64,000 bases of DNA from a virus. The DNA lies in IMG/VR virus record IMGVR_UViG_3300046096_000411, positions 1-64,000 of that record; one strand, written 5' to 3'. Under the pieces are notes generated by a model. That model was not told where the DNA came from. It saw only the letters and a list, made by a program, of their open reading frames with translations, and did not search any database. Position numbers and translations under genes: made by a program. The stretch's first letter is position 1. The number at the start of each line of letters is the position of its first letter. Below are positions 18,203 through 52,782 of this stretch, piece by piece.

Positions 18203-19711
18203 TCAGCCGTGCGGACGCCATGTGCTAGTTGCGGGAAGAATATTCTTCACGAAACCATGATGTTTCGGCTTGGTCACACGCAGGAAACCGAAGAGGAACT
18301 GGAACCACGATTGCACTGGCACGCCACCCACGCCGAAAGGCAATGGAATCTTGGTCATCGGCTGGAACTGGCGCCATCCGATTGCATCAGCCGACTGAGC
18401 CAGGTTCAACACTGGCACCTTGCAAGTACCAGGGATGTCGCGGTTCAAATCGGTAAACACGGTCGATGCACCAGTGCGGGGGATGATTTTCACCAAGCGC
18501 AGGTCGCTGGTACCGTCGGTACCATTCTGGCGGCCGCGATAGATCGCGTAGCCAGTCTCGGTGCCGGATGCGGACACAGTGATAGTCACGACAGCCTTCT
18601 TGCCTGCAGCCACGGCGATCTGGCCGGACTTCAGGATGGTGGACTGACCCTGACCAGCGCCGCCCACGCCGGCGACGGCGTAGTAGTAGTTACCAGCGCG
18701 AGGCGCGGTGAACTGGCTGGCTGCGTCGTCGGCTGTGGCGAGAACACCAATTGCGGCAGGCTTGAACGTGTTGTTAGCCGTGGCCAATGCGGGCTGCGAC
18801 ACCTCGAACGGCTTGGACATCACGAAGTCTGCGTGGTGCAGGAACGTGTCGATGTTGGTCTTCAACACGCCTTCGGTCAGGCGAATGCCGGACACGTGAG
18901 CGCCGACTGCCATGTTCTGGTTGCCACCATCTGGGCTCCAGCGGAATGCGGGGTCCAGACCCATGTTCAAGTCAGTCTGCACAGCAGTAGGCATGAACAC
19001 GTCGGTGATGCGGCCCCAAGAACCATAGTCAAACACCGAAGCGTTGATCTTGGCAAAAGGCTCCACGGAATTCAGGGGCAGGCCCTGCATGTCCACGACG
19101 TTGGAATCAGGCACATTGCCGGCTTCGATTTCCGCTTCGATCTGGGCAAAGATGCCATCGAACTCGGTTGGGCAAGCCTTGCTGTTTCCGTAGAACAACA
19201 GGTACTCAGCGTCGGTCATCAACTGCAGGGCGCCGTTGCGCTCTTCCACAGCGGTGGCTTCCACGATGTTCTTGCCGATGTTCAGCACGTAGCCGACCTG
19301 GCGCAAAGTCATCAGGAACTTGACCATGCCAACTTCACGGCTGTACTCGCCCTGAGCTGAGCGAACAACACCCATCTGGGAGTTGGTCGAACCGCCGAGG
19401 AATCCACCGATGCCAGTCTGGCGGGTGTACTCGTCAACGATGTTAGTCGCGTTGGTCTGCTGCAAGCGCTTGAACAACACGAAGTGTTCCTGCTCCTGAA
19501 TGGTGGTCTTCATGGCGGTGTCCAAAGACTGCACGCCCAGAGCGCCACCACCGGTCAGGGTGGAAACGTCGGTCTGGTACGAGCTGGCTTCGAGGGCCTT
19601 CTTCAGATCGCCCATGGCGTCCAAAGAGCCGCCCATAGAGGCGCCGAGGGAGGGATTGCTGCCGCCGGGGGCCATGCCCGCAAACTGCTGCATCAAGGTT
19701 TGAGCGTCCAT
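18203..19711 (-). CDS. Major capsid protein
   Basis: 502 aa after protease and scaffold; GALGVQSLD, EYLLFYGN...EFDGI motifs like SPO1/Twort-type capsids; putative cleavage LKK/AL. Confidence 0.9.
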   Translation of the reverse strand: MDAQTLMQQFAGMAPGGSNPSLGASMGGSLDAMGDLKKALEASSYQTDVSTLTGGGALGVQSLDTAMKTTIQEQEHFVLFKRLQQTNATNIVDEYTRQTGIGGFLGGSTNSQMGVVRSAQGEYSREVGMVKFLMTLRQVGYVLNIGKNIVEATAVEERNGALQLMTDAEYLLFYGNSKACPTEFDGIFAQIEAEIEAGNVPDSNVVDMQGLPLNSVEPFAKINASVFDYGSWGRITDVFMPTAVQTDLNMGLDPAFRWSPDGGNQNMAVGAHVSGIRLTEGVLKTNIDTFLHHADFVMSKPFEVSQPALATANNTFKPAAIGVLATADDAASQFTAPRAGNYYYAVAGVGGAGQGQSTILKSGQIAVAAGKKAVVTITVSASGTETGYAIYRGRQNGTDGTSDLRLVKIIPRTGASTVFTDLNRDIPGTCKVPVLNLAQSADAIGWRQFQPMTKIPLPFGVGGVPVQSWFQFLFGFLRVTKPKHHGFVKNILPATSTWRPHG

Positions 19712-19749
19712 TGCTGTGTCCTTAAGAGTAAAAGTTAATGATGCCGCGA

Positions 19750-20385
19750 TCAGGCGAGGGCGATCTTTTGGATCAAGCCCGGCTCAATTGGGTGATTGCC
19801 GCGTAAGCTAACGCTCACCACATTGAGTTCTTTGCCGCTGATCTTCCCGGCATCGAAAGCTGCATTAGCCTTGGCGAAAAACTGCTCGGGCGAGATACCC
19901 GCGTCAGCATTGGCCTTGGCCATCGTGTCGCCGATGGCGGGCTTCTCGATCATGGTCAGCATGGCTTTGCGGCCGCGACCTTGTGACGAGAGACTGGCCA
20001 CTTGGGCAGACAACGACTTGATCATGTCGCCTTGCTTGCGCACGACGGTACTAAAAGAGTTCAACGCTTTAGCCAGTACATCATCGGACTGGGTCTGGCG
20101 TTCCATTAGGGACTTCACCAGATCGGTGGCATCGACGGCTTCATGGCTTGCGCCAGACTCGTCGGTGAACGCGAAAGATTTGCCAAAGTCTGGTTTGTCG
20201 CCAGCGGCTGCAGGGGCAGCGACGCCACCATCAGCGGCAGCTGCTGCAATTGCGGCGTCGTCACCATCCTCGTCGTCTTCATCTTCGACGGGAACAGGTG
20301 GCTCAGCGATAGCCTTGGCCATCGTGTCGGTTTCGGTGCTAATGGCACCAAGCTCTTCAAGGAGCGCTTCAAAGTTCTTGCTCAT
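19750..20385 (-). CDS. Capsid scaffolding protein
   Basis: Acidic/helical, between protease and MCP, about seven hydrophobic-x-K-(S/A) sites. Confidence 0.75.
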   Translation of the reverse strand: MSKNFEALLEELGAISTETDTMAKAIAEPPVPVEDEDDEDGDDAAIAAAAADGGVAAPAAAGDKPDFGKSFAFTDESGASHEAVDATDLVKSLMERQTQSDDVLAKALNSFSTVVRKQGDMIKSLSAQVASLSSQGRGRKAMLTMIEKPAIGDTMAKANADAGISPEQFFAKANAAFDAGKISGKELNVVSVSLRGNHPIEPGLIQKIALA

Positions 20386-21290
20386 TTAATTCTCCGGTTT
20401 TTGGAAAGACCTGATTTTAGATCACCTAGAAAGCGATCCACCCACTCGGCCGACTCATCGAGCGAGAGCACGAAGGCTTCTGCGCTGTAGTGCATCAAGC
20501 CATTCGCAGACGTGTCGCTGACCTTGCCGCTTTTGACGGCGGCCGCGAGACGTTCACGAAAGTCGAAATATGACTTCGGGGAGCGCGACCCACCGTCCAA
20601 GGACTGAGTGGTCAGAGCGGCTCCGCCGGTTTTTGCTGTGGCATCCGTGGCGTAAGAGGCTTCGAGGGCTTTGGCCATATCGAAGCCGCCCGCGCCCCAG
20701 GACTTCGCCAGGACACCGAAAGGGATCGTAGACACACCACCGACGGTTTGATTCACCGGGTGCTGGCTAAGTGCGATGTTTGTCCAACGCACGCCACTGA
20801 CGACGCCAACGCGGTCGCCGGTATCGGGGTCGATGCGGGTGGACTTGGCTAACACCTTGCCGCCAACGCTGGGGTACCACTTGCGGGGCGGGCTCAGCTT
20901 CGTCATGCTGTCCCACACCTCATTTGCGCGCTTGGCTAGTGGCGTGTCGCCGGTAAAGAGTTGAGCCTTCACGAAGGTAGATGCGCCGCTCACACGGACA
21001 TCAACTGGCGTGCCGATTTCCCAGTGCTCTGGGTTGTCGATGCCGTACATCTTGGCGACGGCTGGCATTGATTTGTGGTCGAGGTCGATGTTACCGAACT
21101 TGAGGTAGTGCCCGGCCGACTCTTCAAGAGCCTTTGCCAGAACAATCTCGTTCTGCTGGTCTCGCGCCTCGCGGGAAGCCTCCAGATAGACGAATCGACT
21201 CCCGCCTTCCTGAGCAGGCGTGGCTTTCAGCATCATTTCGATACTGAGGTAATCGGGGAGGTCCGCAATCAGCTGCGCTTCGCTGGTCAT
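20382..21290 (-). CDS. Prohead (maturation) protease
   Basis: EASREARDQQNEIV, GNIDLDH (His), YPSVGG (Ser), IALSQHPVN of herpes/HK97-fold prohead proteases. Confidence 0.85.
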   Translation of the reverse strand: MTSEAQLIADLPDYLSIEMMLKATPAQEGGSRFVYLEASREARDQQNEIVLAKALEESAGHYLKFGNIDLDHKSMPAVAKMYGIDNPEHWEIGTPVDVRVSGASTFVKAQLFTGDTPLAKRANEVWDSMTKLSPPRKWYPSVGGKVLAKSTRIDPDTGDRVGVVSGVRWTNIALSQHPVNQTVGGVSTIPFGVLAKSWGAGGFDMAKALEASYATDATAKTGGAALTTQSLDGGSRSPKSYFDFRERLAAAVKSGKVSDTSANGLMHYSAEAFVLSLDESAEWVDRFLGDLKSGLSKNRRIK

Positions 21291-21312
21291 GAGCGAATTC
21301 TTGCGTCACGAC
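21291..21312 (-). promoter_or_regulatory. Late-promoter motif, leaderless (GTCGTGA cgca AGAAT tcgctc ATG)
   Basis: TCACGAC at 21306-21312; first 16 nt identical to the 6060 copy. Confidence 0.85.
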
Positions 21313-21337
21313 TGACGGCGCGGGTGACGACCCGGAT

Positions 21338-21595
21338 TTACTCGCCCAACGCCTGCCGTGCCTTCGCAATAACGGTGCCGAGTTGGCCGCGTTCATTAAT
21401 TAGGGACAGATAGCGCTCCTGCGACGCATCGGGTGCAGTCTCGACGCCGGGGTGCAGGCGCTCGATGGCGGCATTCACCTCGTCAAGACGGGACGTTGCG
21501 CTTTGCAGGATGCGGCGCTCGGCGGCCTCGGTCTTGGCGGCCAGGCTGTGCAGCTCACCCAAGTGAGCCCGGGTGTTCTCGATGTGCTTCTTCAT
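21338..21595 (-). CDS. Hypothetical coiled-coil protein
   Basis: 85 aa helical ORF, ATGA overlap with upstream gene. Confidence 0.65.
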   Translation of the reverse strand: MKKHIENTRAHLGELHSLAAKTEAAERRILQSATSRLDEVNAAIERLHPGVETAPDASQERYLSLINERGQLGTVIAKARQALGE

Positions 21596-21786
21596 TTGCG
21601 CACCTCAGCGAGACACTGCGACCGAAGGTCGGCCCGCTGGATCGAGTAGCACTGGCTAGGCTCCCGGTGGGCTCGCGCCAGACACATAGTGCGGGCGTCG
21701 GCGTCCTGGATGTTGTAGCAGGCGCTGGTATTGGCGACTGCGCCGGTTGCGGCGAATGCAAGGATTAGTGCGGCAAGAGTTCTCAT
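21592..21786 (-). CDS. Small secreted protein with two Cys repeats
   Basis: Signal peptide MRTLAALILAFAATGAVA; repeats CYNIQDADARTMCLA / CYSIQRADLRSQCLA. Confidence 0.7.
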   Translation of the reverse strand: MRTLAALILAFAATGAVANTSACYNIQDADARTMCLARAHREPSQCYSIQRADLRSQCLAEVRK

Positions 21787-21800
21787 GGCGTGAGGTTACC

Positions 21801-24800
21801 TCAAAACAAACCCTGCTGGTCGGACTGCGCTGCCGCGCGCCGGGCCGCAATGGCACCAGCCACGCCAGTATCGTCAAGCCCATCCAGCGGCGAAGCCATC
21901 ATATTCTTGAGTCCGTACTTGCGGTCCAGTCGCTCGCGGCTGCGGCGTTCCTCCGGGTGGTCACCCTGCAGGTCGATCAGCTCCACGCCATTCTTCTGCC
22001 CCAGGCGGTGAATGCGGGCATTCCGCTGGCTGTGCGTCTTGGCCGTCTGGCTGATATCGTGCTGGATCAGGAACTGGCCCGATTGCAGGTTCATGCCCAC
22101 GGCACCAGCATCGGACGCAATCAACACGTCGGCTTGCGCCTCACCCTGCTCCGGGTTGAACATTCGGCGCTTGGCGTCTTTTTCCTTGGCGCTGTCGCTG
22201 CCTGTGATGACCACTACCTTGCGCCCGGCCTTCTCCATGGCTGCCTTGTACTGGCTGACGGCCTCGCGGTTGCGGGCGAAGATCACGCCCTGCTTGCCCG
22301 GCCGCGCCTGCACCATCTCCACGGCGCGCTGCACCTTGGCGTTGTCGGGGTGGGTGTTGATAACGCGGTTCACCGCCGACGACTTGAGCATGCCCACGGC
22401 CTTCTGCAGCTTGGCGGCCACGGCCTCGTGCTCCGCCTCGGGAACACCATCAAACGAACCGGGCGAGATGTGGCGCACGGCCTCCACGTCCACCTTGCCA
22501 GCGCGCTGCGCCAGGCGAGCGCGGGCCAGGTGCTTGTCGAGCTCACCAAGAGCCTGTTGCTGCCCCTTGGACAGCGGCACGGTCTCCGTGCTGCGGCTGA
22601 CGGCGACGTCGGGCGTGATGGAGGTCGGGAACACGTAGCGGGCCATTTCCCGCTGCAGCGCCTCCTTGCTGGCGATGGTGTCAGCGCCATAGCGGCGCAT
22701 GAAGGCCGCCCGGTCGCCGTAGCGGCTGGGGTCCATCTTTTGCAGCATCGAGTGAATCTCGCTGGCGTCGTTCTTTACCGGGTCGCCTGACGAGAGCACG
22801 TGGTACGGTGTGTGGTGGCCGACCGCCTCGATGACGTTGGCCAGGCTGGAATTTTCCTTCCCCGCCCGGTTTAGTGTGTCGTGGGACTCGTCCACAAACG
22901 AAGCGTCGAAGTTGATACCCTCTTTCCCCATCACGCCAGCCGCCCAATCGCGCCGCTGGTCGGTGCTCATACTCTGCAGCTTCGCCGTCATGGCGCCTTC
23001 GTCAATTCCGGCGTGCTTGGCGCCGAGGTGCACCATGTCGTCGCGGAAGGATTGGTGGGTCATGACGCAAATGTGCGTGCCGGCGTCCTTGTAGGCTGCG
23101 ATGCGCTCGGACTGGCTCGCCCCGGGCTGAATGTGGGTCTTGAACTTGCCGGGTTCCAGCAGGCGCAATGCCTCGCCGGAGAATTGGCCCTGCACGACGG
23201 ATGGCACCATCATGATCGACCGCTTGACCTTTCCCATGCCAGACAGGTGCGCGTGGGAACCGAGCATCATGTTGGTTTTGCCTGACCCGGCACCGGCGGC
23301 CAGCATGGCGCGCTTATTGGCTGCTACCAGCTTGATCGCGCGCTGCTGGGCGGCGTACTTGCCCGACATGGATACGCCCCATAGCTTCGTGGGCTGGCCG
23401 GGTTTGAAATTCTCGCCAACGTGGCCCACCATGGCCGCAATCTGCCGCTCGGCGGCGTGCCCCAAGGTGTGGCGCTCGTCAGCCCCCAGCGGCACGGGAG
23501 CGCCGTCCTGACCGGGTCCAGTGGACTCCGGTGCGTCCTCGGACGAAAAGAACCCCATCTGCGCCTGCTCAAACGCGGCCTGCTCCTGCTTGGCGGCGTC
23601 AATCTTGTCGGCAACTGAGCCGCTGGAATACTTGCCACCCACCCGGTTGCGCAGCCGGTCCACCAGCTCTTTGTCCTTTGCCAGCCGAGCCTCGCGGGCG
23701 GCTGGGTCAACGGCGTCCAAGTGGTTGAGGTTGTTTCGGATGGTGCGCTTGCCCAGCTTCATGGGCGCGTCCGGGTTGAGCTTGTTGTGGGCGTCGATAA
23801 ACGAGCTGGCCATCTTCGAGCGAATAACGTCCTGCACGGCTTCGTAGGCACGCTCGTTGCCGCCCATTGTCTTGAGGTACTTGGACCACGTGAGGCTGCT
23901 GGCGTTGAGCTTGGCAGCCATGCCGTCGCGGTGCGTTTTCCAGTCCTGCCAATCAGGGTTGGGCACAGTGTCCCCGAACATATCGGTAGACTCTTTCTCG
24001 GGCTCGCCGGCGATGTGTTCCTCCAGCTCCTTGCGCATGGCACCAGCGGCGGCGTCCTCACGGGCGATGTGGCGGTAAAAATGCTCGCGCAGGGCAGATT
24101 GGTCCTTGTTGGTCAGCTCGCCGATTTGCTTGTAGGCGGCGGTGCCCTCTGGGGTTTCCGCCAGCGCACGGTGGAGCGCGTCCACAGAGTGCTGGTCAAT
24201 CTGGAATTTCTGCCGGTTGAGCGTGGTGCGCTCGCCTCCCAAGGCGGCCACGTGGCTGTCGGCGTATTTATCGAAGGTGTCAGCCAGCGCCTCAGCGCGC
24301 TGCTGCTTGCCGTCCGCGCCCTTGAGTGGGGCCACGGCGTCCAGCGCAGCGCGGTATTCCTCCGTGCGCCCTGCCCCGACCTTTTGGAAGAAGTCGGCGG
24401 ATTGAACGTCGGACAGGATGTCGGCTGGAGCGTCGCCGTCTGCGGCCCGCGCCCCAATATAGGTCTTCAGGCTGGCCTGCAGGTCTTCACCAGGCTGGAA
24501 CGGCTGCGCCATGCGCTCGGCCACGCCAGACTTCACGTCCATGACCATGTCGGGCCGATTGGCGACGCCCATGGGTAGCCAGCCGTCCTCGTCGTGGTCG
24601 CCGCGCATGATTGCCAGATTGCGCCGCACTTGGGCAATGTCCTCGCGCGCAACGGGCTTGGCAAGGCGCGCCATGCCAGCAGGCGTGACGGTGAGGAATG
24701 TGTCGCCACCGACTTTCTCCAGCTCGTAGTCGCCGGGCTGGAGCCCAATCGCCCGAACCTGCGTGATCGCAGCCTCGGGCGACGTGTTGCCAAGGGATAC

Positions 24801-26351
24801 CTGAAAGTCGCCGGAACCCGGGCCTTTCATGGCAACCACCAGTGCGGCGTTCGCCTCCATCTCGCCCAATGCCTGCCCCAAGATGCGCTGAGCATCCCCG
24901 ACGGCAGCGCGGCGGCGCGAATTCAGCTCTTGGGCCACCGCTAGGTCGGCGCCTGTTTTGGCCTCGTCCGAGAGGTCGATGGCGGCCGCGGCGTCGGTCA
25001 GCTCCCGCGCTTGCTTCAGCGCCTTGGTGCTGGTGGCCATGTAGTGGTTGACGTGCCAGTCCTGGATGCCCTCGGCGACGTGCTGAACCTCGTCAGGATT
25101 GAGGTCGGAGTGCAGGCGGCGCGCCAGCACCTGAGCGGCGCCAGCCACACCCAGCACGTCCACCACGGAGCGATCCACGAGGGCGTCACCACCCACGGCC
25201 ATAGCCAGTGCGTTGATGCTGTTGTACGCCCCAACGCCCATGTGCCCACCCAAGGTCTCGTTTGGCTGAGCCCCTGCGATTTTGCCAACTTCGGACAGAA
25301 AAGCGCGGGTCTGAGCGGTGCGTAGGTCGTTCTTGAGGTCTTCCTGCACCGAAGCGTCCACGTCGTCCGTAGTCTCCAGCACGAATGCCTTGGGCTCCAC
25401 GGGTGACTTGTCCACGTCGGCGTTGGCCTCTCGGGCGGCCTTTTCGATGAGTGCGAGCTTCTTGCCCTCCTTCACCAGATCGAGGGCGTCCTTGGCGGAA
25501 ATCAGGCTGGCGTCAGCCTTTGGTGCAGCGGGCTCCTTGATGCCAGCCAGCTCCTGTTTGATTAGTTTGGCGGCGTCGCCTTTTGCCAGTGCCTTCTGGC
25601 GCTGCTCGGGCGTCATGCCGCCCGTTTTCACTTCGGCCGCTTCGGCTTCGAGATTCTCCTGCGACAGCCCGGCAGCCTCGGCACGACCTTTGTAGTCGGC
25701 TTGGAACCCCAGCCCAGCACCAACCGGACGAACAGGGTCAAGGTCGGCGGCAGACACCTCATCAGGCGAATCGGAGAACAGCGGAACCTCGCCAACGCCG
25801 GCCTCTTCACGCGCGGCGGGGCTTATCACCAGCATTTGACGGCTCTGCTGGATTACCTCCTTGGCCTTGCTGAGCAGGTCGCGGTGGAATTTTGACCGCA
25901 CCTTGTCGCGCGCTGATTCGGATAAATGCTCGTAGTCGGCCTCGGGGAACTCCATGTCCTCGGGAGCCCAGCCTGCCTTTTTGGCGACGGCGCTGATAAC
26001 CGACTGCTCGGCCTTCTTGCGCTGCTCTGCAATGTCCTTGCGGACCTGCTCCTTGGCACCATGGATGCCGGCGGCTTTGTCAGCGGCGGTTTGTTCTTTG
26101 CGTGCAACACGCTTATCGGCGGCCTTTTTCCCGGCTTCAGCCTTGTAATCAGAGTGCGATTTAACGCCTCGCAGCTTGAGGTAGTTCAAGCTGCCGCCAG
26201 CGCCACCAATGACGCGAGCAGAGCCATCCGGGTGCGGCTGGATGAGCACGGCCTGACCCTTCGACCCGGGGCCGTTTGGATGGACTGTGATCCAGTGGGC
26301 GTCAGCCGGAATTGCGTCGGCCTTGATGAGAAGTCGTGGGATTTGCCGCAT
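21801..26351 (-). CDS. Large SF2/SNF2-type helicase, putative virion-packaged (DarB-like)
   Basis: Walker A GAGSGKT, VDESH, SGDP, GMNLQ, QRNARIHRLGQ in C-terminal third; N-terminal PRLLIK/A tag; located in head module. Confidence 0.85.
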   Translation of the reverse strand: MRQIPRLLIKADAIPADAHWITVHPNGPGSKGQAVLIQPHPDGSARVIGGAGGSLNYLKLRGVKSHSDYKAEAGKKAADKRVARKEQTAADKAAGIHGAKEQVRKDIAEQRKKAEQSVISAVAKKAGWAPEDMEFPEADYEHLSESARDKVRSKFHRDLLSKAKEVIQQSRQMLVISPAAREEAGVGEVPLFSDSPDEVSAADLDPVRPVGAGLGFQADYKGRAEAAGLSQENLEAEAAEVKTGGMTPEQRQKALAKGDAAKLIKQELAGIKEPAAPKADASLISAKDALDLVKEGKKLALIEKAAREANADVDKSPVEPKAFVLETTDDVDASVQEDLKNDLRTAQTRAFLSEVGKIAGAQPNETLGGHMGVGAYNSINALAMAVGGDALVDRSVVDVLGVAGAAQVLARRLHSDLNPDEVQHVAEGIQDWHVNHYMATSTKALKQARELTDAAAAIDLSDEAKTGADLAVAQELNSRRRAAVGDAQRILGQALGEMEANAALVVAMKGPGSGDFQVSLGNTSPEAAITQVRAIGLQPGDYELEKVGGDTFLTVTPAGMARLAKPVAREDIAQVRRNLAIMRGDHDEDGWLPMGVANRPDMVMDVKSGVAERMAQPFQPGEDLQASLKTYIGARAADGDAPADILSDVQSADFFQKVGAGRTEEYRAALDAVAPLKGADGKQQRAEALADTFDKYADSHVAALGGERTTLNRQKFQIDQHSVDALHRALAETPEGTAAYKQIGELTNKDQSALREHFYRHIAREDAAAGAMRKELEEHIAGEPEKESTDMFGDTVPNPDWQDWKTHRDGMAAKLNASSLTWSKYLKTMGGNERAYEAVQDVIRSKMASSFIDAHNKLNPDAPMKLGKRTIRNNLNHLDAVDPAAREARLAKDKELVDRLRNRVGGKYSSGSVADKIDAAKQEQAAFEQAQMGFFSSEDAPESTGPGQDGAPVPLGADERHTLGHAAERQIAAMVGHVGENFKPGQPTKLWGVSMSGKYAAQQRAIKLVAANKRAMLAAGAGSGKTNMMLGSHAHLSGMGKVKRSIMMVPSVVQGQFSGEALRLLEPGKFKTHIQPGASQSERIAAYKDAGTHICVMTHQSFRDDMVHLGAKHAGIDEGAMTAKLQSMSTDQRRDWAAGVMGKEGINFDASFVDESHDTLNRAGKENSSLANVIEAVGHHTPYHVLSSGDPVKNDASEIHSMLQKMDPSRYGDRAAFMRRYGADTIASKEALQREMARYVFPTSITPDVAVSRSTETVPLSKGQQQALGELDKHLARARLAQRAGKVDVEAVRHISPGSFDGVPEAEHEAVAAKLQKAVGMLKSSAVNRVINTHPDNAKVQRAVEMVQARPGKQGVIFARNREAVSQYKAAMEKAGRKVVVITGSDSAKEKDAKRRMFNPEQGEAQADVLIASDAGAVGMNLQSGQFLIQHDISQTAKTHSQRNARIHRLGQKNGVELIDLQGDHPEERRSRERLDRKYGLKNMMASPLDGLDDTGVAGAIAARRAAAQSDQQGLF

Positions 26352-26389: not shown

Positions 26390-26785
26390 ATGAGAGACTT
26401 CGCCGAAATTGTGTGTTCTTACGCGGCGCCACAACAAAAACAGGGGGCAAGGGTGGGGAATGACAAACGCGCTCGCATTGAGCGCGCAAAGACGTTTGCA
26501 AAATCGGACGAGGGAATAAATGCAAGTCTGTCGGAGATGGCCGACTGCGCCTGCATGAGCCGCTTTCACTTCGCCCGAGTCTTCCGCGACGTTACGGGCA
26601 AGACTCCCATGGAGTACGTGCTGGAACAAAAAATGGAGTGCGCCAAGCGAAAGCTGGCTGCCGGGCGTTGCAGCCTCGCAAACGTGGCGGCGTCGTGCGG
26701 ATTTTCAGACCAGTCCCACATGACGCGGGTGTTTCGGCGCGACCAAGGGGAAACCCCGGCGCAATTCAAGCGCCGCCAAGAATAG
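26390..26785 (+). CDS. Stand-alone AraC-family DNA-binding protein (MarA/SoxS-like); true start may be GTG 26453
   Basis: SLSEMADCACMSRFHFARVFR...TPMEY...LANVAASCGFSDQSHMTRVFRR...TPAQF double HTH. Confidence 0.9.
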   Translation: MRDFAEIVCSYAAPQQKQGARVGNDKRARIERAKTFAKSDEGINASLSEMADCACMSRFHFARVFRDVTGKTPMEYVLEQKMECAKRKLAAGRCSLANVAASCGFSDQSHMTRVFRRDQGETPAQFKRRQE

Positions 26786-27923
26786 CCCGCAGCTCATCCG
26801 CAAAAGCCGGGTCGTCGCCTGGGGCGTCCTCAATCACGGGTACCCAGCGACCACGGCAATGCGGGTGAGCAAGTCCGGCTGGGATTTGCCACATCTCGTC
26901 TGGCTCGCGGTCCACCAGCACGTCACCGACGCGCTTCTTGGGGGATGCGGACCGGCCGACGTTGTTCTTTCCCGGCCAGATCATGGTGTCGGGGTTTTTG
27001 TCCGGGTGATCGGCGGCGACAACCGTGACCACGCGACCATCGATGCTGCGGCAGAAGGCGCACGCGCCCTCGTACCGCTCGACGCGCTGCACCTTGGTGC
27101 CGGGCTTCAGGTTGGCGATGTAGCCCTGCAACTGGGCCTCGCCGGCCTCGGTGACAGCGATGCGGCGCCAGTCTCGATTAAGGGCGCCGAACTCGTCCAG
27201 CAGTTTGGTCTGCAGGCTGCTGGTGCCGGGCGGCAGGTTGCCCAGCGCCCGCTGCTCCAGATCGGCGACCACCACGGCGCGCAGGCGGTGGCGGGTGTTG
27301 TCGGACAGGGCCTGAACGTGCTCAGCGGCACGCGCGCGCGCGAACGTGAGCACGGCCTGTGTGGCGGCAGACAGCGCAGTGGCTTGCGCCGCAGCTGACG
27401 GCAACACAGCCAGGATGGCGTCGGCCTGCTTCGCTGTGGGCGTCTTGCCTTCGAGGTTTGCCTGCACCTTGCCCATCATCGTGGCCTTGGTGGCGAGCCA
27501 GTCGGCCTCGGCCACGAGCTCGCCAGCGGGCAGGTGCCGCTGCACGACGTACTCGATGGCGATCATGTGGTCGTCCAACGTCCACACGGCGGGCGGCAGG
27601 CTTTCGAGGTACAGGCGCGCCAAGGACAGCTCCGCCTCGTTCCAGCGAGCGAGTGTGCCGGGCGGCGTTGGCTGGATGGATGCAGTGGGAATGTGGTTGG
27701 CGCCAGACTGCCACGCCAGCAGCTGCTGGTGCACGGCGTCCAGACGGGCGAGGCCGCGCTCGGTAAACAGCTCGATCAGGCGGCGCACCAATGGTGAATC
27801 GTGGGGCTTCCAAATTCCTTCAGACCCGTGGTCGTGGCCGTCGGAAAGCGCCTTGTAGAGCCCCTCCAACATATCGTTGGTGGCGCGGATCGGTACATGC
27901 AAGAGATCAAGGAATAAGCCCAT
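26766..27923 (-). CDS. MuF / SPP1 gp7-like minor head protein
   Basis: RRIAVTE, CAFC, HPHCRGRW motifs. Confidence 0.85.
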   Translation of the reverse strand: MGLFLDLLHVPIRATNDMLEGLYKALSDGHDHGSEGIWKPHDSPLVRRLIELFTERGLARLDAVHQQLLAWQSGANHIPTASIQPTPPGTLARWNEAELSLARLYLESLPPAVWTLDDHMIAIEYVVQRHLPAGELVAEADWLATKATMMGKVQANLEGKTPTAKQADAILAVLPSAAAQATALSAATQAVLTFARARAAEHVQALSDNTRHRLRAVVVADLEQRALGNLPPGTSSLQTKLLDEFGALNRDWRRIAVTEAGEAQLQGYIANLKPGTKVQRVERYEGACAFCRSIDGRVVTVVAADHPDKNPDTMIWPGKNNVGRSASPKKRVGDVLVDREPDEMWQIPAGLAHPHCRGRWVPVIEDAPGDDPAFADELRAILGGA

Positions 27924-29577: not shown

Positions 29578-29580
29578 CGA

Positions 29581-30942: not shown

Positions 30943-30955
30943 CGGTTACTCCAAT

Positions 30956-32548: not shown

Positions 32549-32560
32549 GATGGGCTCCTA

Positions 32561-37331: not shown

Positions 37332-37348
37332 GCCCCTGCCCTTATGGC

Positions 37349-38227: not shown

Positions 38228-38263
38228 AAGTGTTTCCAATTAGGGATGGGGACAAACCGCCTC

Positions 38264-41296: not shown

Positions 41297-41300
41297 AACC

Positions 41301-45269: not shown

Positions 45270-45971
45270 CTACTTGAGCAGATCAGGGCGCACCATGAGC
45301 ATAGACTTTTCCATGGAGCCGCCGGGCTTTGCGTACTTGTAGCCGCCCCTAGCCATGCGCTGAGAGTCGGCGCCGCTGACTACGACGTGATGACTGTGAT
45401 CCGGGTGAGACATCACAAAGGCACCACCCTTGCTGTTTGCGCTTTTGTTTGAATACGAGTGGGCGCGGTCAGCAGTGGAGAAAACAGCAACCCCCGACTT
45501 TGACTTTGCTCCAGCACTGACGGCGTGGTTTGAGACGTCGTCGGCCGACATAGGAGGCTTAGGCTTTGCAGCACCGGCTGGCGCAGCAGGCTTCGCAGCC
45601 GGAAACTTCTTCTCGTACCCGGCAACCGAGCGCGCATGGTTCAAAGTCTTGAACCCGAGGCCCTCGTGGTGGTCTGGGTGGATGTGCTCCAAGACGTGAT
45701 CGCGGGCGGCTGTATCCATGCCTTTAAGGGTTCCCGACAGTGCCTTGTGATCGCCAGCCGCCATCTGGTCGGCGGCGATCTGGTTATGCCAGTGGTCTAT
45801 GTGGTCCGGCTTCGAGGACTCGCGCAAGGCCTTGGCGTGGGTACCGAGAGGCGGCGCCGCCGCCTGTCGCTTGTCGTCATGGGCCTGAACGATTGTGCCA
45901 TCGGAACGGGTGTAAGAATCGACGTGGGACTTCAGCATCTCGGGGAATACGATCAGGATTGGTTTCGACAT
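45270..45971 (-). CDS. Putative internal head (cargo) protein
   Basis: PILIVFPEMLK/SHVDSYTRSDGTIVQAH leader; His/Lys/Ala-rich; second MEK/S site near C-terminus. Confidence 0.65.
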   Translation of the reverse strand: MSKPILIVFPEMLKSHVDSYTRSDGTIVQAHDDKRQAAAPPLGTHAKALRESSKPDHIDHWHNQIAADQMAAGDHKALSGTLKGMDTAARDHVLEHIHPDHHEGLGFKTLNHARSVAGYEKKFPAAKPAAPAGAAKPKPPMSADDVSNHAVSAGAKSKSGVAVFSTADRAHSYSNKSANSKGGAFVMSHPDHSHHVVVSGADSQRMARGGYKYAKPGGSMEKSMLMVRPDLLK

Positions 45972-47169: not shown

Positions 47170-47178
47170 CGGTAGATA

Positions 47179-47973
47179 TTAGCTCTTCGGAGCGACCTTT
47201 GGTGCTTGGTGTAGCTTTTTCGGTGCAGGCCCAGCACCAACAGCCTCAGCAATTCCATGATCCGTTGGCATGTTGAGAACTTCGTACAGGTGTCCACGAG
47301 GGACGAGGCTCACGGCCTCTGATTCCCAGCCGCAGTCAGTTGGGTCGCCACCAACCCGCACCGCCCGGTAGAACCGGGCCTTGCTGGTGGTGCGCTCCAC
47401 GTCCATCAGGAAGCCGGTGATCTTGATCTTCAGCCCACTTTCTTCGTGGGCCTCTTTCGCTGCATTACCTTGCAGGCTCAAGCCCTTCTCTGCGCCCCCT
47501 TTGGGGAAGCTGGCTTGGTACCCACCGAAGGCATTGGTCGGATGGATCACCCAGCACCGGCCGTCCTTTTCCTCAATCACAACGCCAGAGGCGACCGCCT
47601 TGCCGGGTGTGACATGGAACGCTGGTTCTTCAATGTCGTGATCAACGCAGTCCGAATAATCCCAACCCTCGGCCGTGGTCGGCGCATCGCGCCAGCGGCG
47701 AAACGGCACGCCGTTCAACTCGCGGGGCACGTCGCCACCAGGCACAAACGTGGCCACGGCGTCGGGGTTGTCCCAAGTGGACTCGGCCGACGGATGGTGC
47801 GGGGCCTTGACCAGCACGGCCTCGCCCTTTTCGCCCAGCTTCGGGTGATGGTGCGGTGGCAGCGGCTCGTGGCCGTTGCGGTCATACGGGCGGACGTAGT
47901 GCTCGCCGCGCATGTGGCCCTTGACGTGGGCCTTGGCGAGATCGTCGCCGAACTCCAGTACGGCATCAGTCAT
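47179..47973 (-). CDS. Nudix hydrolase with putative capsid-targeting leader
   Basis: FPKGGAEKGLSLQGNAAKEAHEESGL Nudix box (first Glu replaced); N-terminal DLAK/AHVKGHMRG. Confidence 0.88.
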   Translation of the reverse strand: MTDAVLEFGDDLAKAHVKGHMRGEHYVRPYDRNGHEPLPPHHHPKLGEKGEAVLVKAPHHPSAESTWDNPDAVATFVPGGDVPRELNGVPFRRWRDAPTTAEGWDYSDCVDHDIEEPAFHVTPGKAVASGVVIEEKDGRCWVIHPTNAFGGYQASFPKGGAEKGLSLQGNAAKEAHEESGLKIKITGFLMDVERTTSKARFYRAVRVGGDPTDCGWESEAVSLVPRGHLYEVLNMPTDHGIAEAVGAGPAPKKLHQAPKVAPKS

Positions 47974-48475
47974 TGCCCACCACCCCCGTCAACGCCATAG
48001 AAATCGACCGGACGGCCGCCACCAGGGTCTGCTCTGTTTCCTCTCCTGGCGCGCCGGCGGACGCCTCGCGCAACAGGTCGTAGACCGAATGCACGAACAC
48101 GGCGAAGGCTTGGGCAACCAGCTGCACGTCGTCGTCGTCCGGCACCAGCTCCCGCTCCATGCGGTTGCGCAGGTGATCGGCCAGTGGTTTACCAGTCCAG
48201 TTGCGCACGGGCGCATAGGCGGGGTCCGCACCAGTGAACACGCTGGCGAGCTTCAGGCACTGCGCCCGGTCGGCGTCAGCGGCATCGCCGGGTGTGAGCA
48301 CGCCGTGCCCAACCTCGTCAAACCGCGTGATTACTTCGGATGCGAAGCCGCGCACGATACGCTCGACCTCCCGAATGTCGCCCAAGTACACGCGGCCATC
48401 GGTGGCGGCCTTCAGGGACTCAAGAATGCCAGAGGGGTCGGTGTGGAGGTTAAGTTTTTCGGTCATTTTGGTCAC
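47966..48475 (-). CDS. Hypothetical helical protein, candidate inhibitor/immunity partner of upstream ART-kinase
   Basis: GTGA-coupled to toxin-like gene; acidic, no targeting tag; function inferred from position only. Confidence 0.6.
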   Translation of the reverse strand: MTKMTEKLNLHTDPSGILESLKAATDGRVYLGDIREVERIVRGFASEVITRFDEVGHGVLTPGDAADADRAQCLKLASVFTGADPAYAPVRNWTGKPLADHLRNRMERELVPDDDDVQLVAQAFAVFVHSVYDLLREASAGAPGEETEQTLVAAVRSISMALTGVVGND

Positions 48476-51400
48476 TCAGTTGGCAGAATAACGGCTTCGA
48501 TCACGTGGCTTGACGATTTGCCAAACCCGTCCGCATCGCCGTCCTTGCCTTTTACAGACAGGATCATAAGGCGAGTTCCAGGCGGGAGGATCATCTCATC
48601 CTCGCCGGAGTTTGAAGATAAAGCACCACCACCAGCAATCGAGTGGTACCCGACCCATAAACCCTTCACGCCGGGGCCCACGTGTAGCTTCAGGTGCACG
48701 TTTCCACCCCAAGAAGACGGACGGATTGACGTGGACATGATCGCTGGCTCCTGAAGAATTTTCCCCGAGGACTTCAGCAGCTGATCAAGGTCACTGCCGT
48801 GCAGCGAAATCTTGCGCGACAGGACCGTGCCCGGTGCAATATCATGCCCCAGTGTTTTCAAAGCCTCGCCGGCAGCCTTTGCCGCGCCAGTCGGGTTGCC
48901 GCTCCACAGCGAGCCATTCATGGCGTGATACGAGCTGCCAGTGTAGCTCTTCACCGCCTGCTTTTGCGTGGCGGGCATTTTTGCAATCGCGGCTTGGGCC
49001 TGCTTGGCATAGGTCTGGGCGGAAAGCGCGCCGCCACCCTCTGCGTGCTTGATTTTTTCCGGCAGACCCAAATCCGCCAGATTTACCGACCCGGGCTCGC
49101 CGAGCACAATAAACTTGCCGAGCTTTTGCGCGACAGCGCTGGAAGCAGGACCAGTAAACGCGGGGTACGCAGCATTCAGCGAGTGCAGCGGGTGGCCGCC
49201 GTCAAACCTGAACTTCTTGGGCGGGTTTAGCTGGTAGTTGATCTCGTTGATGGCCTGCTGGGCGTAGCCCTTCACGTGCTGGCTGGGGTGCTCCAGCACA
49301 GGCTTGTGGCCAACAACCTGCCCGGAATCCTTGTCATAAACCGGCGCGGTCAGGCCTTTGATGGCGTCCAAGTCGCCCGTCTTGGCGGCGGCGAAAACCG
49401 CCTGCACGGCTTCCTCGTTGGCTTTGTTGAGAAACTCCTTCGAGGAAGGGCCAGAGCTGCCGTTGCCGCCCCAGTTGAGAAAGGACGGCGGCGCGCTGAT
49501 GTCTTCGGGTTTGAAGACCGGGGCCTTCTTCTTCTTGACGGCGGCAGGAAACCGCTTCGCCAGGTCGGCCTTGCGGGCAATAAGCGTCTCGGCCAACTTC
49601 GTCTTGGCTGCGGCATCGCCGGGTCCGTACTGGTTGACCATGGCGCGAATGGCCACGTCGCTGATGGCTAGCACCTTTGCCGCGCTGGCGGTCAGGTCGG
49701 CCTTGGTCATGCCCTTGAAGACAGACGCGGCCTGCGGGTTTTTGCCCGCGTCCAGCAGGGTGTCGAGCTCGTCCACCTTGGAGCCAAAAGGCTTCTTCTC
49801 GCCTTGGGCGCGGTATTCGAGCGAACCACCAGCATCCACGCGGTGGGCCTTGCCGTCGGGGCCAACCTGCAGGTTGTCGTAGCCGAGGCCGACCACGTCC
49901 CAGTTGCCCAGCCATGCATCAACCGCGAAACCGGCCTGCGCGCCATCAACCTTGGCAAGCGCGCCAGGAGTGGCGGCCTTTTTGATGTCCACCCACTTGG
50001 AGGCAATGCCGACCTTGCCACCCTTAGTGACAAGCACGGCGTCTTGGCTGGACAAGCCCGCGAGGGCGTACAGCTTGGCCGCGAGCACTTCGGACTTGGC
50101 GGTGTCGGCGTCGGCGGGGAATTTGCAGTACCACTCCTGGCCGGCGGGGTCTTTGAACTTGCCGCCGGGGTTGGAGCCGCCCTGCCCGCCGGTTTGAGCC
50201 CATCCGTCCATGGGGAGCATGCCGCCGGCGGCGGTTGGGGGCACCTGAGCTGCGGGAGCGGCGGCGGTTACGGGGGAGGGCCCGGTGCCATCGCTCCACG
50301 CAGAGGTGTCCACTCCCATGGCCTGCGCCACGGCTTTGATGTGGCTGGCAGTTTTGGGGAAGCTCATCGCGTGAGCCTTGGTGTAGGCGTTAGCCATGCC
50401 CACGCCGTCGCCTTTCTTGGCTGCGGCTGTGGCCAGCTTGCCTGCCCCGTTGTTTGAAAACTTAGACTGGCCTGGGCTGATCGTCTGGATGGCGGTACTG
50501 ATGTCGATCAGGGTTGCCTTTTTGACCTTGGCCGGGGCGGCAGGCTTGTAAGTCGGGTCGAGCTTTTTCAGCGCGGCATCTGGCGGGATGGGGTATCCCA
50601 TCGCCTTCATCTGGGGGAGAATTTCGGCGAGCGTTTCGCCCGGAATGGTGTCGGGCTCGGCGAACGAGTCATCCGTCACGCCAAATTCAAACCCGTCATC
50701 GCCGCCTCCGGCGAGGTAATAACCTTTCCCGTCTTTCTCAAATTCCAGCGATGGGCTGCCATCGAGGCCGGGATTGGATGCCGAGTGGGTCCACCCACCC
50801 ATGCCGTCATCCTGCTTGACCCAGTGCCCATTTTTGAACACCAGCATGCCGTCGGCGCCAGGCTTTGTGTCGCCTTCCTTGGGGCCGGGCTCCACGGCGG
50901 CTGGGGCTTCGTACTCGTGCTGAGCGGTACCGGAATAGTTGTAGCCCTTGGCCTTCTTCTCCCCCATGAGCTTGACGGCGGCATTTTTTGCGGCCTGCTC
51001 GGATGGAAATACCTTCTCGGTGACCTGCCCCTTGGTGCCGATTTTCCCGTAGTGCGTCTTCATCACGGAGCCGAGCGTCGACACCGACCAGAACTTGCTG
51101 TGGCCGGGCTCCTTGTTTTCGTAGAGCGGGGCGTCGATTTTTAGTTTTTGCGCGGGGGTTGCAGGCGCAGCTGGGGCGGGCGCAGGGGAAGCCCGCTGAG
51201 GCTTCGTCCCAGCCAGCGCATGCCCCTGCAGCTCTTGCGCTTTCTGCTGAGCCGCCTCCAAAGCGTCATCGTAGTCTTCGTCCGTTTGCTTTTCTGCCGG
51301 CATACTCTCGTTCACGGCATCCATGAAGTATTCCATGGCGGCGTCCGGGTCGTGGTCCGTCAGCGCCTCGTAGGCATCGGCCTGCGCCTTGGTGGGGACT

Positions 51401-52782
51401 TTCCCAGCGGAGATTGCGGCCTTCCACTCGCTGACGACGGGGTATGGGTCGGCGGCTGGCGCGGGGGGTGTAGCAGTCTGCATCCCGATTGCCGCAGCAT
51501 GGTGCGACAGGTCGTGCGACGCCAGTGCATCGTGCATTTCAGGCTCGCCGCCAGGATTTGCTGCCAGCCAGTCCTGAGCCGCGAGCTTGGCGGCGATAAC
51601 CTTGTCGTAGGGTGACGACATTTTGTGCGCAGCCAGCGTGTGCGCGAGGTGGTCGTAGGCAGGCTTACCTTGGAGCGCAACCGGCGCAGGCTCCACAGGC
51701 ACAGCCGCGGTCGCGCCATCCACACCCAGGCCGGCCAGCGCGGTCTGCGCGGTGAGAGCCTGCTTCTTGGCGTAGGTCTGCTTGGCGTCGGCCTTCGAGT
51801 TGATAAAGGCCTGCAGCCCGGCGGTGTCGCCAGCGAAGGCCATGGCCTCGATCTTCGCCATGGCGGCGTTGTGGCTCTTGGCGTTGGTGTTCTCGGGGGG
51901 CAGCTTCAGCTTGAACCATGGGATGGATTGCAGGTTCTGCAGCTGCTGGGCTGAGAGCGCACCAGAGGCGGGCGGGGCCGATGCCGGAATCTCGGCTTCG
52001 GGAGCGGCGGGCGCGGCGGCCTGCGGAGCTGCCTGCTTTTTGGCCGTGCCCTTGGCAACAGCCTCGGCCAGCGTAGCGGCGGGGATAGTCGCGGAGTTTG
52101 TCTGGTTCGGCACCTTCGCGCCGACCTTGTGCATGTAGACATGCTGGCCGTCGGGGCTGGTGTTGTAGACCACCCACTTGCCGGCGTTCATCTTCTCGTA
52201 CTGGCTGGAGAACTCGAAGACGGTGCCGGTTGCTACAGTTTCGGCAGATGCCGGAGTAATCGCGGCGGGCTCGGGCTCCTTCGGCGCCAGGTGCTCAGGC
52301 AACCCAGTCGGATGCGGGTCGGCGGGCTCAGCCACCTGGGCGGCGGCGTGGGTACCGGGTTTCTGGCCCGGGGTGACGGTGTGCGTAGAGCCGTGCAGGC
52401 CCAACAAGTGGTTGGCGATTTTCGCCAGCTTCGCGCCGTAGGTGTTCGTGCCAAAACCCGCACCAACGATGGCCGTCACATCGCCCGCATCGGACCACGC
52501 GCGCAGCTTTTCCAGCGCCTTATTGAAAACGGGCGCGTTCACATTGGAGTCCGGCAGCTTCAGCGCGGACCATTGGTCGTCGGTAAAGTGCGCGGCGGCC
52601 TCGTGGTGCCCAGCGGATTTGGGGTGCGCAGCGACAGGTGCGCCCTTGGGGGCTGGTGCGTCTTGGGTGATCTTTCGCCACCGGGGAGGGTTGCCGTAAA
52701 GAGCGTACCCACCCTTATGGGCAATCGAGGTGCCGGTGCCGGGTCCGGATTTCAGCAGCAGGATGAGACGCGGTGTGTTCAT
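48472..52782 (-). CDS. Polyvalent protein: WGR domain + HipA/PI3-PI4-kinase-like domain + R-S-E ADP-ribosyltransferase
   Basis: WGR: HSKFWSV..HYGKIGTKGQ..EKKAKGY; kinase: GSNPGG..WYCK..SEVLAAKLY..LGNWD..DN..VDAG; ART: YTGSSYHAMNGSL..LSR..MSTS..EDEMILP. Confidence 0.88.
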   Translation of the reverse strand: MNTPRLILLLKSGPGTGTSIAHKGGYALYGNPPRWRKITQDAPAPKGAPVAAHPKSAGHHEAAAHFTDDQWSALKLPDSNVNAPVFNKALEKLRAWSDAGDVTAIVGAGFGTNTYGAKLAKIANHLLGLHGSTHTVTPGQKPGTHAAAQVAEPADPHPTGLPEHLAPKEPEPAAITPASAETVATGTVFEFSSQYEKMNAGKWVVYNTSPDGQHVYMHKVGAKVPNQTNSATIPAATLAEAVAKGTAKKQAAPQAAAPAAPEAEIPASAPPASGALSAQQLQNLQSIPWFKLKLPPENTNAKSHNAAMAKIEAMAFAGDTAGLQAFINSKADAKQTYAKKQALTAQTALAGLGVDGATAAVPVEPAPVALQGKPAYDHLAHTLAAHKMSSPYDKVIAAKLAAQDWLAANPGGEPEMHDALASHDLSHHAAAIGMQTATPPAPAADPYPVVSEWKAAISAGKVPTKAQADAYEALTDHDPDAAMEYFMDAVNESMPAEKQTDEDYDDALEAAQQKAQELQGHALAGTKPQRASPAPAPAAPATPAQKLKIDAPLYENKEPGHSKFWSVSTLGSVMKTHYGKIGTKGQVTEKVFPSEQAAKNAAVKLMGEKKAKGYNYSGTAQHEYEAPAAVEPGPKEGDTKPGADGMLVFKNGHWVKQDDGMGGWTHSASNPGLDGSPSLEFEKDGKGYYLAGGGDDGFEFGVTDDSFAEPDTIPGETLAEILPQMKAMGYPIPPDAALKKLDPTYKPAAPAKVKKATLIDISTAIQTISPGQSKFSNNGAGKLATAAAKKGDGVGMANAYTKAHAMSFPKTASHIKAVAQAMGVDTSAWSDGTGPSPVTAAAPAAQVPPTAAGGMLPMDGWAQTGGQGGSNPGGKFKDPAGQEWYCKFPADADTAKSEVLAAKLYALAGLSSQDAVLVTKGGKVGIASKWVDIKKAATPGALAKVDGAQAGFAVDAWLGNWDVVGLGYDNLQVGPDGKAHRVDAGGSLEYRAQGEKKPFGSKVDELDTLLDAGKNPQAASVFKGMTKADLTASAAKVLAISDVAIRAMVNQYGPGDAAAKTKLAETLIARKADLAKRFPAAVKKKKAPVFKPEDISAPPSFLNWGGNGSSGPSSKEFLNKANEEAVQAVFAAAKTGDLDAIKGLTAPVYDKDSGQVVGHKPVLEHPSQHVKGYAQQAINEINYQLNPPKKFRFDGGHPLHSLNAAYPAFTGPASSAVAQKLGKFIVLGEPGSVNLADLGLPEKIKHAEGGGALSAQTYAKQAQAAIAKMPATQKQAVKSYTGSSYHAMNGSLWSGNPTGAAKAAGEALKTLGHDIAPGTVLSRKISLHGSDLDQLLKSSGKILQEPAIMSTSIRPSSWGGNVHLKLHVGPGVKGLWVGYHSIAGGGALSSNSGEDEMILPPGTRLMILSVKGKDGDADGFGKSSSHVIEAVILPTE

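Follow-up and report, generated by a model that had tools for sequence, protein, structure and literature searches.

What would place one short motif both in the head proteins of a phage and at the very start of proteins that are not structural? The question is raised by a 64,000-nucleotide (nt) stretch of viral DNA (IMG/VR record IMGVR_UViG_3300046096_000411, positions 1 to 64,000; hereafter the window), which makes up the opening 64 kb of the 93,362-bp genome of a PHB04/Dolphis-like myophage. The motif is a hydrophobic residue, any residue and a lysine followed by serine or alanine (hydrophobic-x-K/[S,A], the slash marking the putative cut). The original prediction had listed it in a series of head proteins and at the end of a short hydrophobic leader on four non-structural genes, and had read it as a portable address for encapsidation and maturation cleavage. 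Every listed site is present in the gene named for it, all on the minus strand, and the pattern itself is confirmed and is not due to chance: the head proteins and the four non-structural genes do carry the same site, as enrichment over shuffled sequences and leaders kept in orthologues attest. On the evidence set out below, we put the probability at roughly 60% that the N-terminal tag on these enzymes is a cleavable capsid-targeting propeptide, analogous to the capsid-targeting sequence (CTS) of T4 and to the signal of DarB in phage P1 and unrelated to both in sequence.

The head and candidate head proteins that carry the motif, and the elements within them, are as follows (aa, amino acids):

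18203..19711, minus strand: major capsid protein (MCP), 502 aa, of the SPO1/A511/phi812 type (phrog_752, 1.9e-83; PDB matches to SPO1 Gp6.1 (9VEL) and the phi812 MCP)
nt 19598-19711, minus strand: predicted capsid propeptide, residues 1-38, ending DLKK/ALEAS; L-x-K/A kept in four relatives
19750..20385, minus strand: scaffolding protein, 211 aa, seven sites (assigned by motif enrichment and conservation)
20382..21290, minus strand: prohead protease, 302 aa, six sites including an N-terminal MLK/A at residues 20-23 (phrog_1028, 3.2e-29)
20586..20684, minus strand: copy of the capsid N-arm within the protease, residues about 203-235, from alignment with the capsid protein
26766..27923, minus strand: conserved head-module protein, 385 aa, possibly MuF-like, with LYK/A at residues 22-25 (predicted propeptide nt 27852-27923)
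38500..39504, minus strand: 334-aa protein encoded directly downstream of the portal gene, three sites (by enrichment)
39504..41207, minus strand: portal protein, 567 aa (Pfam Phage_portal, 4e-21)
nt 39507-39539, minus strand: 11-aa C-terminal tail of the portal after the DMQK/SFGLPVFTVEP site, conserved in four phages

We counted the motif as [LMF]-x-K-[SA] and compared the counts with 2000 within-protein shuffles. Seven sites in the scaffold (MAKA at residues 22 and 155, FGKS 67, LVKS 89, LAKA 104, MIKS 121 and FAKA 170) stood against 0.56 expected (p<0.0005), and six in the protease (MLKA 20, LAKA 51, FVKA 106, LAKS 147 and 194, and MAKA 205) against 0.60 (p<0.0005). The product of the 38500 gene has three (FHKA 31, LAKS 122 and 148; 0.25 expected, p=0.002), as does the portal (FAKS 54, MQKS 554 and a non-conserved LPKS 31; 0.67 expected, p=0.03). 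The single capsid site, LKKA at residue 36, is not enriched when taken alone (1 against 0.52 expected), and the 26766 gene contributes one site, LYKA at residue 22. By comparison, 15 of the 17 tail and baseplate-side genes called lack the motif. Placement is skewed as well. The N-terminal check that had been proposed with the motif, run on the first 25 residues, gave 7 genes with a site among 13 of the head or cargo group and none among 24 other late genes (Fisher 1.7e-4), an enrichment in the predicted direction with a grouping that is partly post hoc. In four genomes, 13 of 34 strings consisting of a hydrophobic run and K[SA] fell within about 20 residues of a start codon, where some 8% would be expected (binomial 1e-6). 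Internal copies in the two giant proteins introduced below, an SNF2 helicase and an ADP-ribosyltransferase (ART) protein, were not counted as sites; they are near expectation and unconserved, and the FNKA inside the ART protein reads FNKQ in orthologues.

In the head proteins the sites are held in place across relatives. All seven scaffold sites are found at the same place in PHB04, ST4 and Dolphis, with scaffold identity at just 36-38%, and so are all six protease sites in alignments with the same three phages. The capsid site reads LKKA, LSKA, LQKA or LIKA across relatives and the 26766-gene site stays [IL][YF]K[AS] in four phages; the portal sites near residue 54 (FAK/S) and at the C-terminus are likewise kept in four phages, whereas LPKS 31 is not. 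We then let the P1 position vary, testing all 20 residues in [LMFIV]-x-?-[SAG] in eight phages that include Thermus Lalka27a and Bacillus SPO1. Lysine was the sole enriched residue both in the scaffolds (5-11 sites against about 1 expected) and in the proteases (6-8 against about 1.2), and the SPO1 scaffold alone holds 11 h-x-K-S sites where 1.3 would be expected (h, hydrophobic). Cutting at all seven sites is predicted to reduce the window scaffold to peptides of 15-45 residues. These data support the idea that the motif acts like a prohead-protease site.

The P1 scan also bears on whether the strings concern the virion at all. They could be host-protease degrons, a feature of translation initiation or a habit of the lineage, with the scaffold enrichment reflecting coiled-coil composition. 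Scaffolds are indeed helical and rich in Lys and Ala, but Glu, Arg and Gln are just as characteristic of coiled coils and show no enrichment at P1, and the motif is enriched in the non-coiled protease too and stands at the annotated capsid cut of A511. Some ClpXP N-degrons resemble short hydrophobic-basic N-termini, a likeness that speaks for this explanation; the tagged genes, however, lie within the head modules of several phages. Nor do the leaders fit export: with 3-6 hydrophobic residues they fall short of a Sec or Tat signal peptide, and they sit on cytoplasmic-type enzymes, so a signal-peptide reading was rejected. We judge an origin unconnected with the virion to be very improbable.

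Support for a cut after lysine comes from known capsid maturation. The protease, scaffold and capsid genes are homologous to the SPO1/A511-type set, as judged by phrog_1028 and phrog_752, PDB matches to the SPO1 and phi812 capsid proteins and tblastn matches to Herelleviridae. The window capsid protein shares 59-69% identity with those of the 90-95-kb myophages Aeromonas ST4, Bordetella PHB04, Pseudomonas Dolphis and Jeremy, Yersinia fHe-Yen8-01 and Escherichia ECML-606-1, and 22-33% with those of Thermus phages and Herelleviridae (SPO1 and staphylococcal and enterococcal Twort-like phages); it took the SPO1 capsid as query to retrieve the capsid protein of A511. The GenBank record of A511, from whose mat_peptide annotation we took the cut position, has mature Cps start at residue 24 (EDALK/SFTTGYG), directly after ALK, in agreement with the Lys/Ser cleavage that had been cited for this phage. 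Through the phi812 and SPO1 alignments this start falls on window residue 40, and the predicted cut is K38/A39, such that the Lys/small site of the window capsid matches the annotated A511 cut to within one residue in these alignments. Consistent with this placement, SPO1 Gp6.1 ALNK/ALEAG aligns with DLKK/ALEAS in the window, and the phi812 MCP is deposited as chains of 463 and 439 aa, which fits the loss of 24 residues.

The protease itself carries a copy of the capsid N-arm. Its FDMAK/ALEASYATD..TGGAAL..QSLD parallels GDLKK/ALEASSYQTD..TGGGAL..QSLD in the capsid protein, begins exactly at the site and is present in all four phages; in ST4, capsid and protease match each other by BLASTP (86% over 28 aa). 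This copy suggests how the protease gets built into the shell, and the C-terminal fragment of the protease, once self-cleaved, would begin like mature capsid protein. The protease drew no Pfam match and no PDB sequence match that would define its fold, and a putative assignment as a Ser/His assemblin-like enzyme comes from conserved D-H and S-V-G-G strings read in the alignment alone.

The portal ends in an 11-residue tail, SFGLPVFTVEP, that is kept in four phages, where site and tail read [ML]-x-K/[SA]-F-G-[LF]-P-V-F and come after a low-complexity, acidic, Gly- and Pro-rich linker; this tail may be a removable docking peptide. The 38500 protein is a candidate internal head protein. Its alignment with the PHB04 homologue gp034 covers residues 26-110 alone and leaves both LAKS sites outside. 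Its C-terminal third contains a run of P-[VI]-V-N-[IV] / V-V-P-A-P repeats. The 26766 protein had been labelled MuF. It has no match in Pfam or PHROG and thus none to Phage_Mu_F (PF04233), and the label is a lead drawn from a single source, a cluster of language-model (Atlas) neighbours (score 0.95) in which 27% of members carry that domain.

How does the same site come to stand on proteins that are not part of the shell? The four non-structural proteins concerned, all encoded in the late structural gene block and on the same strand as the head genes, are:

21801..26351, minus strand: SNF2/SF2 helicase protein, 1516 aa (phrog_62; Pfam Helicase_C, SNF2-rel and ResIII)
nt 26322-26351, minus strand: leader of the SNF2 protein, residues 1-10, MRQIPRLLIK/A, read from the sequence
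45270..45971, minus strand: 233-aa protein (the 45270 protein) with a leader at residues 1-14 (nt 45930-45971) and the hairpin SHVDSYTRSDGTIVQAHDD (nt 45873-45929)
47179..47973, minus strand: Nudix hydrolase, 264 aa (Pfam NUDIX, 6.6e-9), with a leader at residues 1-14 ending DLAK/A (nt 47932-47973) and the hairpin AHVKGHMRGEHYVRPYDR (nt 47878-47931)
48472..52782, minus strand: WGR and ADP-ribosyltransferase polyvalent protein, 1436 aa (Pfam WGR and ADPrib_exo_Tox), with a leader at residues 1-11 (nt 52750-52782) and a diverged hairpin next to it

The SNF2 leader reads MRQIPRLLIK/A in the window and MKPILFLK/A in PHB04 gp025, and the ART leader reads MNTPRLILLLK/S in the window and MRLLLLK/S, ..AVLLIK/A or MLVLAK/A in orthologues. 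The 45270 leader is MSKPILIVFPEMLK/S, and the tag runs ..EMLK/SHVDSYTRSDGT in the window and ..DLVK/AHVAGYTRSDGT in Dolphis gp116; the 45270 protein has no match in Pfam or PHROG. The Nudix leader closes with ...GDDLAK/A, and its site reads DLAK/AHVKGH in the window and DLMK/AHVKGY, PLVK/GHVKGY or MTKLFLK/AQVKGY in orthologues, which keep L-x-K/[AG]HVKGY. Both the Nudix and the 45270 leaders run on into HV..[HY].R....V..[HY]D, the shared continuation that had been noticed in these two proteins and is seen in both. The description of all four leaders as hydrophobic needs correction, as the Nudix class lacks a hydrophobic run.

The same tag recurs on other enzymes of the lineage. In PHB04 it opens gp027, a 2097-aa methylase-like DarB homologue (MIILLTK/A, then the hairpin), and also gp032, an HD hydrolase (MIVFLK/AQVAGYTRQDGT), and gp049, while gp028, an InPase, starts MGAVVLLK/A. 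ECML-606-1 carries the tag on its Nudix protein and on a 2253-aa protein with an ART-like N-terminus. Among viral contigs of the same lineage, it is found on methylases, ART proteins, small acidic proteins adjoining the 26766 homologue and a fusion of a JAB-like domain with SNF2, and the matches from a tag scan of viral contigs all came from this one lineage. A shared N-terminal peptide thus stands on four unrelated proteins in the window and on five in PHB04. The JAB-SNF2 fusion (L021:6564-12245, plus strand) is an 1893-aa SNF2 homologue whose front part consists of a canonical tag and, in addition, a JAB/RadC-like domain (HNHPSGN). Where this part meets the IPDGARWITVHPNG module, QTLAK/ASIPDGARWITVHPNG is retained and the hydrophobic run is lost, as expected if the Lys site is what counts, and the arrangement hints that polyvalent fusions may be cut into modules inside the head. 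In the window, the WGR and ART protein (1436 aa) and the SF2 helicase with its 1000-aa N-terminal region (1516 aa) qualify as polyvalent proteins, and the Nudix and 45270 proteins are single-domain and do not.

A possible fifth tagged protein of this phage lies outside the window, among tail-fibre genes: a 138-aa open reading frame (ORF) at genome positions 91118-91534 (minus strand) starts MYPFTFFVK/ALPPHV, has no Pfam match and contains an HELVH string that looks like a metallopeptidase motif.

A profile built from ten tags of 45 residues each, searched against 5.8 billion proteins at E<=0.01, matched 266 proteins; the site statistics that follow cover the 120 profile matches listed of the 266. 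The hairpin is at the N-terminus in 112 of the 120. Among these N-terminal matches, 96 have L, F or M at P3, 92 have K at P1 and 92 have A, S or G at P1', and the leader ahead of the site spans 3-54 residues with a median of 9. At all three positions the tag matches the scaffold and protease sites, which is to say that it ends in what reads as a prohead-protease site. The domains joined to it include NUDIX, ART-PolyVal, InPase, ddrB-ParB, Zeta toxin, protein kinases, HD_4 and LPD3. The N-termini of the ART proteins align with the profile by hhalign (95.4%, E 1.7e-8) as a diverged version of the same hairpin tag. Since these N-termini, too, are copies of it, the recurrent unit in the alignments comes to about 30 aa: a variable leader, an invariant L-x-K/[SA] and then the HVxGYTRxDGTxVxPH hairpin. 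The address had been taken to be 10-15 aa long. That size is too small, and its portability is borne out, as the same leader on non-homologous enzymes in relatives and on the 266 database proteins supports a portable tag. A scan of relatives of one profile match (P0002) in 80 viral loci for ORFs enriched in h-x-?-small revealed no K-type scaffold and no enrichment of K or E at P1; the single ORF flagged had T at that position. Full-text literature searches for the hairpin strings turned up no description of the tag, which is apparently undescribed.

For the Nudix protein of the window, AlphaFold2 with 44 homologues gave a model whose mean predicted local distance difference test score (pLDDT) is 87.7. 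Residues 1-19, which comprise the leader and K14/A15, have pLDDT <50; a weak hairpin follows at residues 20-27, and the core begins at about residue 40 with pLDDT >89. In the model, then, the tag is a flexible appendage within reach of a protease and outside the Nudix fold.

Could the tag load its protein without ever being cut? L-x-K-[A/S] would then be the first strand of a small beta module that docks on scaffold, portal or DNA, and its likeness to the scaffold sites would stem from common binding to the protease groove or from coincidence. K-[AS]-H-V-x-G-Y does read as a single continuous block in 112 of the 120 listed matches, but the residues ahead of P3 are free in both length and composition. 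The kinases P0027, P0045 and P0068 carry tandem hairpins without a leader and P0104 carries them behind a signal peptide, arrangements that make the hairpin a unit of its own; yet leaders without the canonical hairpin (SNF2, InPase) still finish in h-x-K/A, and the internal junction of the JAB-SNF2 fusion retains L-A-K/A alone. The virion RNA polymerase of N4 offers a precedent, being packaged unprocessed according to PMC5512222. What an uncut module leaves unaccounted for is that the tag shares its P3, P1 and P1' preferences with a multi-site scaffold and that the site falls in a segment modelled as disordered. We consider such a module unlikely.

A cut leader, in turn, need not be an address. 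It could be a safety propeptide that keeps toxic enzymes (ART, Nudix, helicase) inactive within the cell that makes them until they are in the procapsid, with packaging set by the hairpin or by other domains. The cargo enzymes are potentially harmful to their producer (ART, and the Zeta toxin and kinase fusions among the matches), but Nudix, InPase, HD and SNF2 folds are unlikely all to be inhibited by a disordered leader that has 5-14 aa and lies far from the active site. Nudix-class leaders, very short and non-hydrophobic (MDLMK/A), do seem too small for an address, and a 169-aa ORF (47966-48475) lies between the genes for ART and Nudix and overlaps each of them at its ends, which also suits this explanation. 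In known systems, however, the prohead protease is active only inside proheads, so its substrate must already have been targeted there. A purely protective role thus strikes us as distinctly unlikely.

We favor a cleavable propeptide that targets its protein to the capsid. [L/M/F/I/V]-x-K/[S/A/G] would be the recognition site of the SPO1/A511-type prohead protease. In the procapsid interior, this enzyme would trim the capsid protein at K38/A39, chop the scaffold into its 15-45-aa peptides, cut itself, with one cut opening the capsid N-arm copy, and take the 11-aa C-terminal tail off the portal. On the SNF2, WGR/ART, Nudix and 45270 proteins, the same site closes a short flexible N-terminal leader that is mostly followed by a basic beta-hairpin (HVxGYTRxDGTxVxPH or a diverged copy). 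Leader and hairpin would dock on the scaffold/protease core and in this way carry the enzymes, which are expressed late, into the procapsid as it assembles; the protease would cut at K/[S/A] and free the mature enzymes inside the head; and these would be ejected with the DNA and serve as early anti-defence or host-takeover factors. The idea of a maturation-cleavage site is supported for the head proteins by enrichment, positional conservation, a lysine-only P1 and the A511 match. For the four enzymes we infer from sequence their cleavage, packaging and injection, and likewise which part of the tag serves as the address.

Several points count against the propeptide. The A511 site has Leu at P2 and not at P3, and the A511 scaffold candidate is without motif enrichment, which indicates that the subsite rule differs within the protease family. 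Thermus Lalka27a has a K-type scaffold and yet no leader on the one large helicase checked. The Fisher test of N-terminal placement is partly circular because cargo members were picked after the motif was seen. Lysine and the small residue also open the conserved K-A-H-V-x-G-Y module, and their invariance could reflect binding or folding; for this reason an uncut docking module stays a real rival. Finally, we found no virion proteome in the literature for PHB04, Mecenats66 or fHe-Yen8-01, and literature searches yielded no experimental N-terminus or packaging assay for this phage group.

A fuller version of the proposal assigns a role to each part of the tag, and we offer it tentatively, at somewhat less than even odds. 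Leader-K/[S/A]-HVxGYTRxDGTxVxPH would be a sequence-searchable capsid-loading tag across the PHB04/Dolphis-like lineage. The leader would dock in the scaffold/protease core and be cut by the Lys-specific protease, the mature enzyme would retain the basic hairpin as an internal-head or DNA-docking element, and internal sites would make the polyvalent fusions polyproteins that are cut in the capsid.

The closest functional parallel is the T4 CTS, found on IPI-III and Alt and cut by gp21 at L/I-x-E. There, as here, a short N-terminal leader ends in a tripeptide-type site that is also used on scaffold and capsid, and the cargo includes an ADP-ribosyltransferase, as it does in the window. In T4 the leader can be moved onto foreign proteins (cited in PMC9024508 and PMC12991175). 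Unlike in T4, our system has Lys in place of Glu at P1, its protease comes from the SPO1/A511 lineage (phrog_1028) and is not gp21, and the tag, which has no sequence similarity to the CTS, usually comes with an extra basic hairpin. The predicted cargo differs too, with giant polyvalent enzymes in place of small internal proteins.

Phage P1 offers a second parallel. The N-terminal 30 aa of DarB suffice to load a reporter into the capsid (PMC9024508), and in phage P1, as here, large anti-restriction-type enzymes are encoded beside portal and protease genes; PHB04 gp027 is 28.7% identical to DarB over 56%. The first 50 residues of DarB, beginning MNKLSMGVFRCSS..., have no similarity to the tag, however, and the P1 capsid protein is cut after Glu120, where the window system has Lys at the cleavage position. 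The P1 study found no consensus among Dar N-termini (PMC9024508), unlike the one recognizable tag that is common to many cargo proteins here. By descent the tag belongs with neither system: the DarB N-terminus is unrelated, Lys precedes the predicted cut and the protease comes from a different lineage. The likeness to the T4 and P1 signals lies in mechanism and not in ancestry.

In phiKZ-like jumbo phages (SPN3US gp245, 201phi2-1), the propeptides of ejection proteins are processed at S/A/G-x-E. Many head-internal and ejected proteins there share the protease motif of capsid and scaffold, as in our system (PMC10052503 and PMC7411985), but the protease family and motif are different and the propeptides are long, with no single recognizable module. 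The Herelleviridae (A511 Cps K23/S24, phi812/K and SPO1 Gp6.1) have homologous capsid, protease and scaffold genes, and their capsid protein is cut after Lys at the homologous position. In the Herelleviridae literature, we found the site documented for the capsid protein only, and neither a family-wide Lys consensus nor its use on cargo enzymes.

With respect to the cargo itself, the tagged proteins carry domains of the polyvalent-protein survey of Iyer et al. 2017 (PMC5512222), namely ART-PolyVal, InPase, ddrB-ParB, LPD3, Zeta and the MTase-helicase dyad. The survey predicts that such proteins are packaged, and term searches of its text gave no N-terminal tag and no shared protease site. In our system, small single-domain proteins (Nudix, HD and InPase) bear the tag as well.

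If the fuller proposal is true, a scan for N-terminal tags would list the injected effectors of any such phage: ART, DarB-like methylase, helicase, Nudix, InPase, HD, Zeta and kinase proteins. Virion-borne proteins are usually learnt from virion proteomics alone, and a tag that can be read in sequence would predict the early effectors that are injected. Across the lineage and its metagenomic relatives, the predicted effectors comprise anti-restriction methylases and helicases, ADP-ribosyltransferases, and Nudix, InPase and HD proteins that degrade nucleotide signals. The tag also supplies a testable specificity rule for SPO1/A511-type prohead proteases, so far documented for the capsid protein only, and would provide a third capsid-loading signal, independent of those of T4 and P1, for packaging cargo or reporters in laboratory phages of Proteobacteria. 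The principle is not new, as the logic is that of the T4 CTS; it is the sequence of the tag that differs from known signals.

The GC content is about 62%, and the late genes are nearly all on the minus strand; several PHB04/Dolphis-like myophages carry integrase genes. The large terminase gene lies between the portal and 45270 genes:

42606-45227, minus strand: large terminase, 873 aa (TerL PHROGs)

Residues 9-213 of its product match one TerL PHROG, phrog_2, and residues 230-796 match a different one, phrog_675. In PHB04, protease and portal flank the tagged genes, whose neighbours include the DarB homologue and a gene annotated 'Ulx-like anti-restriction'. The six genes of this slot (L001 25939-35744) encode a helicase, the 'Ulx-like anti-restriction' product, the DarB homologue, an InPase, a phosphatase and an HD hydrolase; all but the 'Ulx-like' product and the phosphatase are tagged. 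The corresponding slot in the window, 28948-38239, holds five large Lys-poor ORFs, with a match to phrog_1645 'virion structural protein' for one of them. A 64-aa ORF (21592-21786, minus strand) that lies between the protease gene and the SNF2 gene is kept in ST4, PHB04 and Dolphis. Its N-terminus resembles a signal peptide, and it contains two repeats with Cys residues (CY.I.....R..CLA), a secreted look that is odd within a head module.

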